Below, piece after piece: positions 31,518-33,713 of a stretch of DNA of 64,000 nucleotides. Both the position numbers and the translations under genes were made by a program. This DNA comes from a virus: IMG/VR virus record IMGVR_UViG_3300042539_000280, positions 64,001 to 128,000 of that record; one strand, 5' to 3'. The notes below the pieces were generated by a model. That model saw nothing but the letters and a program-made list of their open reading frames with translations. It made no database searches and was not told the origin of the DNA. The number at the start of each line of letters is the position of its first letter. Positions within the stretch are counted from its first letter, which is position 1.

Positions 31518-31742
31518 TTAGAGAGGGAGTTGGGAGGTATTTGTTTTCTTGAGGAAGTGGAGGTCTTCCGCTTCTAACTGGACTTTGGATTTGAGGACAC
31601 CGGACACCAACTTGGCGGCCATTTCTACCTCGAATCCGTTTGCTTCGCAATACATAACGATTGCATCAATATACGGTATGTCTTTCATATAGACCATCTC
31701 CTCAATGGCCATGGAAAAGTTATTGATATCTTCGGCGTTCAT
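31518..31742 (-). CDS. Late transcription coactivator gp33
   Basis: FS..IE..V....I.YIDAIV.YCE.N..EVE..AKL....LKSK...EA..L.FL. Confidence 0.88.
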   Translation of the reverse strand: MNAEDINNFSMAIEEMVYMKDIPYIDAIVMYCEANGFEVEMAAKLVSGVLKSKVQLEAEDLHFLKKTNTSQLPL

Positions 31743-31751
31743 TCTATATCC

Positions 31752-32375
31752 TTACCAATTTAAGATTAGTTCACTTGTTGTATTCTTTCTGAGGACACCT
31801 CTAGGAAAGAAGTCAAACACTAAACAATAAAGAGTTTCATTTGATTCATTGATATCTGCGGAATGATTGATATTGGACGGAAAAAATATTAGTTTATTTG
31901 TTTCGGGAATTACATCATATGCTTTGCAATTGAATAAGTTCCAATTATTGATCAATAATTCAATGGTAGGAGGAGGTTGTTCGGGTCTATGTAAGTTCAA
32001 TTTACTACTACCATTCTTATCTACACTTAGATATAACAAACCTGTAAATATAGATTGAGCATGATAATGTGAACCAGCAAAATCACCGGGTTTCATTTTG
32101 ATTGCCCAAGCCGTTTTTAGATCCATAACAAAATTAGGATCCGTCAAATCTAATCCTAGAACCTCTCGTGCATATATGTCTGCTACCTTTTTTATGTCAT
32201 CAAAAAGGTCCATAAAGAAAGGATCATTGTGTATTTTCTTAGAAACTGAATACTCACAACATCCGTCATTAGTAGACTCGAAAGGAAGATTTCTAACATA
32301 CTCTAGCACATTAGACCCTACATTGTCAAGAGTTGTTTCTAAGATAGGTGTTGAAAATATGCCCGTGACTTGCAT
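31752..32375 (-). CDS. 2OG-Fe(II) oxygenase-like protein (TIGR02466-type)
   Basis: FSTPI N-terminus, AW.....GD....HYH..S.FTG..Y, P....LIFFPS...H. Confidence 0.75.
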   Translation of the reverse strand: MQVTGIFSTPILETTLDNVGSNVLEYVRNLPFESTNDGCCEYSVSKKIHNDPFFMDLFDDIKKVADIYAREVLGLDLTDPNFVMDLKTAWAIKMKPGDFAGSHYHAQSIFTGLLYLSVDKNGSSKLNLHRPEQPPPTIELLINNWNLFNCKAYDVIPETNKLIFFPSNINHSADINESNETLYCLVFDFFPRGVLRKNTTSELILNW

Positions 32376-32381
32376 GGAATA

Positions 32382-32576
32382 TTACACAAACATTCCAAAG
32401 ATGCCAGAGAGGATAGAGATTGTGATAGCAGAGGCGATAGTGATTTCGATTACTCCTGTAGCCCAGTATCCTAGAATAGCACCAAGAAACAAACCTGCAA
32501 AGGCACAGATATAGACATTGGTGGATAGTGCGAAGTTAAACTCACGCATACCAGTGTATTTGTCTTTCTCACTCAT
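32382..32576 (-). CDS. Small two-TM membrane protein
   Basis: 64 aa with two hydrophobic segments; AAGGA SD. Confidence 0.55.
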   Translation of the reverse strand: MSEKDKYTGMREFNFALSTNVYICAFAGLFLGAILGYWATGVIEITIASAITISILSGIFGMFV

Positions 32577-32596
32577 AATATAATCCTTTCATGATA

Positions 32597-32900
32597 AGCG
32601 GGCCCGTTCTGTTTCGAGGTGGAGCCCATACCCAAAGGGTTACGCTGCTAGAGCGAAAGCCTCATATGCATTGTTATCGTTTGCATTTACGATTTGCTTT
32701 CGATCTCCTTACGACCTTACTGAATCCTGTCGAACCTGAATCGCCCCCATCATAAACAGAGGACTCTCCATGCCTTCTCGGTGATCAATCCGATATCTCA
32801 CTTCATAGAGCCAGCGTCCTGTTCCTCTGTTTATGGTGGAGGCGGTGGGAACTGCCCCCACGTCCAAGAAGCCTATATTCCGTCTCTCAACGATCTAAGC
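32597..32900 (-). ncRNA. ssrA: Circularly permuted (two-piece) tmRNA, alphaproteobacterial type; tag ANDNNAYEAFALAA
   Basis: Minus strand order: acceptor piece with T-arm GTGGG-GGCAGTT-CCCAC and CGCCTCC-A-CCA ending at 32834; 85-nt intervening segment; coding piece starting GGGGGCGA at 32748 (G3.U70 alanine identity pair); tag frame 32684-32640 ending TAA. Outer ends are approximate. Confidence 0.93.
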
Positions 32901-32904
32901 ATGG

Positions 32905-32935
32905 TATTTATAGCACATTTATGTCAGATTGTCAA
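32905..32935 (-). promoter_or_regulatory. Composite promoter for tmRNA: sigma70 TTGACA-17-TATAAA overlapping the T4 late motif TATAAATA
   Basis: Minus strand reads TTGACAatctgacataaatgtgcTATAAATA immediately upstream of the acceptor piece. Confidence 0.7.
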
Positions 32936-33521
32936 TAGCATTATCATTATAATAACTGAACCACCCGGTATAGATATACTTTTCCTGAGTTGGTGAAGTA
33001 ATACCTCTATGGGTAAATGTCCAATCAGCAGGCCAGATTATGGTCAATCCTTTTTCTGGTCTAATTTTTATTTTTTGGTGATAAAATCCTGTTTCGCCTT
33101 GATCCGTAACATCATTAAGATATGTAATAAAAACCAAATGTCTTGAACTCATAGGACGACTATAACAAGCCCTTTCGGAATGCCATCCGTGATAACCTCC
33201 GCCTGGAGGATAATATTGTAAATTTCCAGTTTCTACTGTTTTCCAAGGGTCGGAACAATTACAATAAGGATATTTTTCAATATACAAATCAATACACTTT
33301 TGTAATTCATCATTATAGATTTTAGATATGGTAGGATCTTCCAATTTGCAATCTATACTGTCTTTCATAGACTTATTAACAATTGCATATTCTCCAGAAA
33401 GACCTTGCCATTTATTGGAGGTATTCTTATGATAATCTATCATAAGGTCGCAAACTTGTTTGCTAATATACCATCCACATATAAAGTTATCAAACTGATT
33501 TATAAAGTGTTCTCGTAACAT
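32919..33521 (-). CDS. 2OG-Fe(II) oxygenase
   Basis: LQYYPPGGGYHGWHSE...RHLVFITYLNDV...GETGF...P.KG..IIWPA.WTFTHRG. Confidence 0.88.
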   Translation of the reverse strand: MLREHFINQFDNFICGWYISKQVCDLMIDYHKNTSNKWQGLSGEYAIVNKSMKDSIDCKLEDPTISKIYNDELQKCIDLYIEKYPYCNCSDPWKTVETGNLQYYPPGGGYHGWHSERACYSRPMSSRHLVFITYLNDVTDQGETGFYHQKIKIRPEKGLTIIWPADWTFTHRGITSPTQEKYIYTGWFSYYNDNAIDNLT

Positions 33522-33584
33522 TATTATTCCGTATGTATTTCATTCTCAAACTCCTCAATCCAAGGACCAGTTACCTTTTCTTCT

Positions 33585-33713
33585 TTAATTGCACGGATTT
33601 GACGTTCGGTCTCTGGCGAGACATTCGAGGAACTTAGCATTGTCACCGACACTATTACAACCAGCGATACCAAGACTAAGAAACACCAAGGCGATTAGAT
33701 AAAACTTTTTCAT
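33585..33713 (-). CDS. Small lipoprotein (42 aa), not in the ORF track
   Basis: MKKFYLIALVFLSLGIAGC|NSVGDNAKFLECLARDRTSNPCN; lipobox IAGC; GGAGG SD. Confidence 0.6.
   Translation of the reverse strand: MKKFYLIALVFLSLGIAGCNSVGDNAKFLECLARDRTSNPCN

Follow-up and report, generated by a model that had tools for sequence, protein, structure and literature searches.

The locus studied here raises the question of whether an uncultured lake phage carries a working tmRNA gene of its own, when such an RNA would be made during infection, and what the phage would gain from it. The window, by which we mean the whole 64-kb stretch of DNA that was analysed, comprises bases 64001–128000 of a 164,392-bp IMG/VR virus record that is 94% complete (CheckV). 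The first-pass annotation of the window, made from its letters alone, had proposed a phage-encoded, circularly permuted two-piece tmRNA under combined sigma70 and late control, had seen no smpB gene in the window, and had taken the gene as a pointer to the class of the host. Judging from the sequence, we consider it very probable that this is a functional phage-borne ssrA gene that uses host factors and is expressed both early and late.

Identification of the tmRNA gene

ARAGORN called one tmRNA in the 64-kb window. The call, c[32549,32926], was flagged 'Permuted' and carried the tag ANDNNAYEAFALAA. Its 3′ tRNA domain is located at 55–93 of the gene and its 5′ domain at 179–205, which gives the permuted order. 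Two Rfam models matched over their full length on the minus strand, namely RF01849 alpha_tmRNA at 32939–32597 (98.4 bits, E 1.2e-25) and RF04321 tmRNA_permuted at 32895–32640 (94.4 bits, E 5.3e-17). The gathering scores of these models are 50 bits and 47 bits, respectively, and the scores obtained are far beyond chance for a 64-kb window. ARAGORN and the Rfam alpha_tmRNA model had been named as checks in the first-pass annotation, and both call a permuted alpha-type tmRNA well over their cut-offs.

Read on the minus strand, the acceptor piece comes first, followed by a spacer and then by the coding piece (Table 1). The acceptor stem consists of 7 bp (GGGGGCG/CGCCUCC) followed by ACCA, with an A as the discriminator base and a G3.U70 pair. 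The encoded CCA ends at 32834, and the 5′ acceptor strand begins at 32748. The T-arm is GUGGG-GGCAGUU-CCCAC, comprising a 5-bp T-stem and a 7-nt loop, and the last T-loop base is U in the window gene and A in most relatives. When the sequence was read directly, the permuted pieces, the G3.U70 pair, the CCA, the GGCAGTT T-loop and the tag were all found where they had first been reported. On these features, the window gene is a complete alpha-type, circularly permuted two-piece tmRNA.

Table 1. Parts of the tmRNA gene and its promoter, in window coordinates.
Feature	Position	Strand	Basis or location
−35 hexamer TTGACA	32930..32935	-	sequence read; conserved in L081, L096, L090
TATAAATA: −10 (TATAAA, extended −10 TG upstream) and T4-type late box	32905..32912	-	sequence, conservation
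Acceptor piece, ~67 nt, predicted start G32900 to encoded CCA	32834..32900	-	ARAGORN, Rfam alignment, near-invariance in four relatives, covariation
H1 5′ strands	32900-32897, 32895-32892	-	acceptor piece
H2 5′ strand	32883-32880	-	acceptor piece
P2a 5′ strand	32869-32865	-	acceptor piece
T-arm	32861-32845	-	acceptor piece
3′ acceptor strand and ACCA	32844-32834	-	acceptor piece
Intervening segment (spacer), 85 nt	32749..32833	-	predicted to be excised; folds, relatives' alignment
Coding piece, ~153 nt, 3′ end approximate	32595..32748	-	Rfam, ARAGORN, conservation, covariation
5′ acceptor strand	32748-32742	-	coding piece, which also holds the D-loop analogue
P2a partner strand	32729-32725	-	coding piece
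H2 partner strand	32714-32711	-	coding piece
H1 partner strands	32705-32702, 32699-32696	-	coding piece
Tag reading frame, resume codon GCA (32684-32682), ANDNNAYEAFALAA, stop UAA	32640..32684	-	ARAGORN
P5-type hairpin CGCU/AGCG over last tag codons	32643..32655	-	covariation helix 7
3′ H-type pseudoknot	32600..32633	-	covariation helices 8-10
64-codon ORF, small hydrophobic protein	32382..32576	-	context; starts 19 nt past tmRNA

Genomic context and related loci

The record is an uncultured T4-like myovirus from lake metagenomes, and metagenomes from many lake and freshwater studies contain near-identical DNA. The T4-type neighbours of the gene encode two 2OG-Fe(II) oxygenases, gp33, the gp59 helicase loader, a PDDEXK exonuclease, endonuclease V and PhoH, and further T4-type genes nearby encode baseplate gp6, ribonucleotide reductase and DNA ligase. 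The tmRNA gene occupies a slot between PhoH/PDDEXK nuclease and gp33/gp59. Its place in conserved phage synteny within a T4-like myovirus bears out the proposal that the tmRNA is phage-encoded. By gp6 identity, the closest cultured phages are Melnitz and the pelagimyophages (37–39%), and the cyanomyophages reach ~30%. The two oxygenase genes flank the tmRNA at 31752–32375 and 32919–33521 (minus strand; PHROG 81 and PHROG 61) and are missing at that place in most relatives.

The Pfam model of SmpB (PF01668) gave no match in the window, as the first-pass annotation had noted, nor in the whole 164,392-bp record at its 94% completeness. The genome carries 27 tRNA genes, nearly all of them in one cluster on the gene strand at genome positions 144713–161618, outside the window. 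Between them they serve 19 of the 20 amino acids, tRNA-Cys being absent, with two tRNA-Met and a tRNA-Ala(UGC) in the set. The tmRNA is part of a translation kit with these 27 tRNA genes.

A pattern of the alpha-type T-arm and acceptor end matched at least 120 IMG/VR contigs, and ARAGORN called a permuted tmRNA in most of them. Window-type neighbours (PhoH, PDDEXK nuclease, gp33 or gp59) were present in 69 of the 120 contigs retrieved. Three of the loci, L081, L096 and L090, are 80–84% identical to the window over the tmRNA gene. The coding pieces of the IMG/VR loci fall into two length classes, in which the resume codon lies 62–66 nt or 81–88 nt from the 5′ end. The window group, with its resume codon at 64 nt, and ~20 others make up the short class, and the majority belong to the long class, which is of the Melnitz type. 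The short class is without the small hairpin that the tmRNA_permuted model sets after the outermost P2 helix.

The 64-codon ORF that follows the tmRNA gene is 93–95% identical in L081, L096 and L090 and is present in no other locus. It had no PHROG match, and its product is two-helix-like. No terminator was found between the tmRNA and this ORF, or before gp33. Because the ORF is so close to the tmRNA and no terminator separates them, it is probably co-transcribed, and with the ORF and then gp33 downstream, a message probably begins with the tmRNA precursor. The tmRNA and the ORF are set apart in L090 by 170 bp of inserted DNA carrying a promoter of its own, TTGACA-17-TACAAT.

Covariation of the RNA structure

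Covariation was assessed in 20 phage homologues of the window's length class, for which the structure was taken from the window sequence. G3.U70, the T-loop and the inner T-stem do not vary among the compared loci, but the search pattern imposed this, so it is not evidence. Overall, 91.6% of the cells were paired in the 20 homologues, versus 40–52% when the partners were slid by 1–3 columns. Both sides had changed in 34 of the 56 pairs, and none of 500 shuffles attained these values.

The P2 helices between the two pieces (helices 1–4) were 70–89% paired, and 13 of their 17 pairs change on both sides. The inter-piece helices supported by covariation are P2a, H2 and H1; in H1, the window has an A-U pair where its three closest relatives have G-C. 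The two outer pairs of the T-stem (helix 5) covary. In the P5-type hairpin (helix 7), 88.8% of the cells were paired and two of the four pairs change on both sides. The 3′ hairpin and pseudoknot (helices 8–10) were 95–100% paired, with both-side changes in all six pairs of the hairpin and in two of the four pseudoknot pairs. In this pseudoknot, GGGU (32633–32630) pairs with ACCU (32620–32617) in the loop of the hairpin GGGCUC (32627–32622)/GGGCCC (32605–32600). The alignment shows that conservation of the coding piece among relatives ends after GGGCCC(G/A)CUU.

No PK1-type pseudoknot was identified between P2 and the resume codon, and only 11 nt separate helix H1 from that codon. The RNA therefore appears reduced compared with the tmRNAs that have been studied. 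A candidate PK1 pairing, CGAUU/AAUCG, was rejected because it is not conserved in relatives. The pairing UAAGG/UCUUG of the minimum-energy co-fold was also rejected, in favour of the covarying pairing CAGGA/UCUUG.

Spacer, tag and selection

In the folds, the ends of the spacer form a 13-bp stem that extends the acceptor stem, and this spacer stem is among the helices supported by covariation. Spacer length is 85 nt in the window and 110, 110 and 70 nt among the relatives L081, L096 and L090, and the spacer sequences cannot be aligned. The stem is nevertheless kept in these four through compensatory changes, and the mature pieces are nearly invariant. Lake-metagenome contigs from four studies keep the mature parts, and the sequence of these DNA contigs breaks or swaps exactly at the spacer. 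No ORF lies wholly within the spacer of the window gene (32749–32833). Among the IMG/VR loci L002–L121, the spacers of phage two-piece tmRNAs range from 4 to 266 nt, with a median of 86, and an ORF of 30–77 codons lies wholly inside the spacer in 15 of 119 phage loci.

The tag ANDNNAYEAFALAA is identical in L081, L090 and L096. Between the tag frames of the window and L096 there are three differences, all of them synonymous and in third codon positions, which argues that the frame is translated. The frame has an alanine resume codon and a hydrophobic (A/L)AA end, and the tag pattern ANDN...ALAA is kept across ~100 phage loci. At the level of sequence comparison, these data demonstrate purifying selection on the structure and the tag, together with the integrity of the gene and its phage ancestry.

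The composite promoter

The promoter of the tmRNA gene consists of TTGACA, a 17-nt spacer and TATAAATA. It matches six of the six bases of the −35 and five of the six bases of the −10, with TGC just before the −10. L081, L096 and L090 keep TTGAC[A/T], the 17-nt spacing and the full octamer, and the sequence of the promoter spacer varies among them. The whole genome was searched with the early-type pattern TTGAC[A/T]-N16-18-TANNN[T/A], which gave 47 sites on the gene strand versus 17 on the opposite strand and ~17 in Markov shuffles. TATAAT is the −10 of most of these early-type sites, and an extended −10 TG often accompanies it. The tmRNA promoter alone among the 47 has a −10 reading TATAAATA.

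The exact composite TTGAC[A/T]-17-TATAAATA is present in 59 of 119 phage tmRNA loci, Melnitz included, and in ~80 of the 119 loci TATAAATA stands at a fixed 73–82 nt from the CCA end. None of 14 bacterial alpha ssrA genes has the composite, and CTATAT-type −10 boxes are found there instead. This distribution, together with the uniqueness of the site among the 47, upholds the claim that the promoter fuses a sigma70-type promoter with a T4-type late box.

The phage encodes gp33 (window 31518–31742) and, elsewhere in the genome, a homologue of the late sigma factor gp55. TATAAATA or CTAAATA sits 20–45 nt upstream of several structural genes; TATAAATA itself precedes structural genes at four sites, one of them at window 11742. 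The motif [C/A]TAAATA looks like the late promoter of this phage. The octamer TATAAATA is not enriched (3 in the window versus 4.6 expected; 9 in the genome), so its reading as a late-promoter box is based on position and conservation and not on counts. CTAAATA is the commoner of the two forms of the motif 20–45 nt upstream of structural genes.

Since the composite is conserved and gp33 and gp55 are encoded, expression in both phases of infection is a reasonable expectation. With a perfect TTGACA 17 nt upstream of the late octamer, one site could serve both forms of the polymerase. A point change of TATAAATA to TATAATTA would be expected to cost late activity only. By either promoter geometry, transcription would start at about G32900, where helix H1 begins, and the acceptor piece therefore probably needs no 5′ processing.

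Comparison with known systems

Two-piece ssrA genes have been reported in the Methylophilales phage Melnitz and in pelagimyophages, Kyanoviridae (Buchholz et al. 2022, PMC9004378). Like the window phage, Melnitz is a T4-like aquatic myophage with an alpha-type permuted tmRNA and without SmpB. It shares the slot PhoH - PDDEXK nuclease - ssrA - gp33 - gp59 and the promoter TTGACA-17-TATAAATA (locus L122), and the tags of both phages are of the ANDN...ALAA type. DNA similarity between the two is confined to a 39-nt stretch, and their gp6 proteins are 37% identical. From the 5′ end to the resume codon there are 64 nt in the window phage and 82 nt in Melnitz. Right 3′ of its tmRNA, Melnitz has a glutamine (glnA) riboswitch (RF01739, 52.8 bits). 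In window 31700–33600, RF01739 gave no match at E up to 10, and the window phage has the 64-codon membrane-type ORF where Melnitz has the riboswitch. The window phage also differs from Melnitz in its freshwater origin and its 27 tRNA genes. An early promoter is the only one named for the ssrA of Melnitz in the paper that describes it (PMC9004378).

The two-piece tmRNA of Caulobacter crescentus (Keiler, Shapiro, Williams 2000, PMC16621; RF01849) resembles that of the window in its permuted order, G3.U70 pair, encoded CCA, GGCNGU-type T-loop, ANDN...AA tag and stem-closed spacer, which in Caulobacter is removed by tRNA-processing enzymes. In contrast, the window RNA is much smaller, and in the Rfam alignment it is without the 5′ hairpin of the bacterial acceptor piece and part of P2. 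The pieces of the Caulobacter tmRNA are ~82 and 210 nt long. The sampled bacterial ssrA genes also differ from the window gene in having a CTATAT-type −10 and never TATAAATA.

Phage-borne ssrA without a phage smpB is also known from the mycobacteriophage Bxz1 group, Bacillus phage G and DS6A (PMC4131195). Unlike the window gene, those of the Bxz1 group and phage G are one-piece genes of the standard non-permuted form in unrelated phage lineages. The TLD-only RNA of DS6A differs in having no tag frame and in its proposed action as an inhibitor (PMC4131195). In T4, the late promoters carry TATAAATA, which gp55 recognises together with gp33 and the gp45 clamp (Geiduschek and Kassavetis 2010, PMC2988020). 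The window promoter has the same octamer at −10, and the phage encodes gp55 and gp33 homologues. T4 late promoters need no −35, whereas the window promoter has a perfect TTGACA 17 nt upstream.

Two-piece tmRNAs were found in 53 of 18,146 phage genomes, mostly aquatic, and described in detail for Melnitz (PMC9004378). A 2025 tmRNA database contains 79 unique phage tmRNA sequences (PMC11915505). Phage two-piece tmRNAs are thus already published, and the gene itself adds a freshwater member and changes little. The clade-wide composite early/late promoter, which dozens of related phages retain, seems to be undescribed. We found no description in the literature of the division into a short and a long architecture class, or of the small membrane-protein ORF that replaces the Melnitz riboswitch in this lineage. 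These three additions are modest. The searchable literature yielded no bench test of any phage two-piece tmRNA. As a marker of a very large clade of uncultured T4-like phages, the tmRNA gene is stable and ancestral, and its shared slot and composite promoter offer a simple model for the expression of a stable RNA across the early-to-late switch.

Proposed function and alternative explanations

The steps proposed for the phage tmRNA are drawn from established tmRNA biology (Keiler 2000, PMC16621; PMC11915505), and by this analogy we infer the timing of its transcription, its processing, its charging and its use in tagging. Host RNA polymerase would start at about G32900 from the one composite promoter, with sigma70 early and with gp55/gp33 later. 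The precursor would fold with the spacer stem prolonging the acceptor stem. Host RNase P would cleave before G32748, and host 3′ trimming would halt at the encoded CCA (32834). The products would be an acceptor piece of ~67 nt and a coding piece of ~153 nt, joined by P2a, H2 and H1. Host AlaRS would charge the RNA via G3.U70, and host SmpB and EF-Tu would deliver the charged RNA to ribosomes stalled on broken messages. Translation would resume at GCA and append ANDNNAYEAFALAA as a degradation tag, leading to proteolysis. The likely benefit to the phage is added ribosome-rescue capacity and the recycling of amino acids while the mRNAs of the infected cell are destroyed.

A more far-reaching reading takes the composite promoter as a selected device that keeps the phage tmRNA high during all of the infection throughout a large clade of aquatic T4-like phages, with the phage RNA supplanting host tmRNA in trans-translation. 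Host tmRNA might, for example, be lost after host shut-off or be attacked by defence nucleases. We regard this reading as doubtful. If it is true, the phage would control ribosome rescue, a step that host defence and phage counter-defence might then target.

The gene might also serve a specialised counter-defence, either by rescue from host nucleases that cut mRNA, tRNA or tmRNA or by replacing destroyed host tmRNA. Such a role would narrow the best explanation down rather than compete with it. The phage has a set of 27 tRNA genes, of the kind often read as insurance against tRNA loss, and the predicted expression in both phases would suit a standing countermeasure. However, no sequence link ties the gene to any defence system, and the gene is ancestral and situated in a replication/transcription block, not in a variable anti-defence island. 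The gene would be accounted for just as well by general mRNA decay during infection. A counter-defence role of this specialised kind seems to us unlikely.

We give very little credence to the idea that the RNA is a leader or processing module for the downstream message (64-codon ORF, 2OG oxygenase, gp33), with the tmRNA left as a relic. In a relic, selection would not maintain the tag, P5 and the pseudoknot over ~100 diverged loci. The absence of a terminator from the tmRNA to gp33 fits a leader, as do the conserved ssrA-gp33 linkage and the glutamine riboswitch directly after the Melnitz tmRNA, but a working tmRNA could be co-transcribed as well.

For the TLD-only RNA of mycobacteriophage DS6A, it has been proposed that the RNA acts as an SmpB decoy (PMC4131195). 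Here, such a decoy would titrate host SmpB and shut down host trans-translation, and tagging would be irrelevant. It would suit a phage without its own SmpB gene and an RNA whose best conserved part is the tRNA-like domain. A decoy needs no tag frame, resume codon, P5 or 3′ pseudoknot, yet all of these are conserved, as seen from the covariation and the synonymous-only change in the tag, and we find the proposal scarcely credible for this gene. Captured host DNA (from mis-assembly or imprecise prophage excision) in place of a true phage gene has practically no chance of being correct: prophages commonly integrate at ssrA (PMC4383910), but this gene is complete with its own promoter in a phage of the T4-like lytic type, no close bacterial counterpart was found, the lake contigs of four studies show phage context, and the same slot in a cultured phage and 69 independent contigs effectively refutes the idea by synteny.

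The tmRNA type and the host

A functional phage tmRNA of alpha type had been thought in the first-pass annotation to point to the host class. That step proved unsafe. Within the phage lineage the gene has been passed on vertically, and Melnitz, which carries an alpha-type tmRNA, has a methylophilaceous OM43 strain as its host (PMC9004378) and thus infects no alphaproteobacterium. No full-length bacterial relative was found among 401 alphaproteobacterial genomes, in which the matches extended over 30–55 nt only. The ANDNNAY coding pattern gave 28 loci in 185,579 species genomes, only one of which is a permuted tmRNA. This locus (L146, JAURFE010000054.1) is a 592-bp contig of low coverage in a Vicinamibacterales-binned acidobacterial MAG, and its tag is ANDNNAYEGLALAA. 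The contig is probably a piece of phage DNA placed in the wrong bin. What an alpha-type tmRNA tells about a phage is its ancestry and not its present host, which matters for host prediction in viral metagenomes.

An unannotated alpha-type permuted tmRNA was also observed in the Sinorhizobium phage Phosso (PV764938.1), a 469-kb jumbo phage, at ~349.5–350.2 kb. It was missed by ARAGORN, and its acceptor arm was not located by the pattern search; the Rfam match stands, with 108 bits for alpha_tmRNA and 113 bits for tmRNA_permuted. The Phosso tmRNA spans ~690 nt (L123:2503-3192) with a spacer of ~390 nt, and its 3′ part shares 83% identity with the coding piece of the window.
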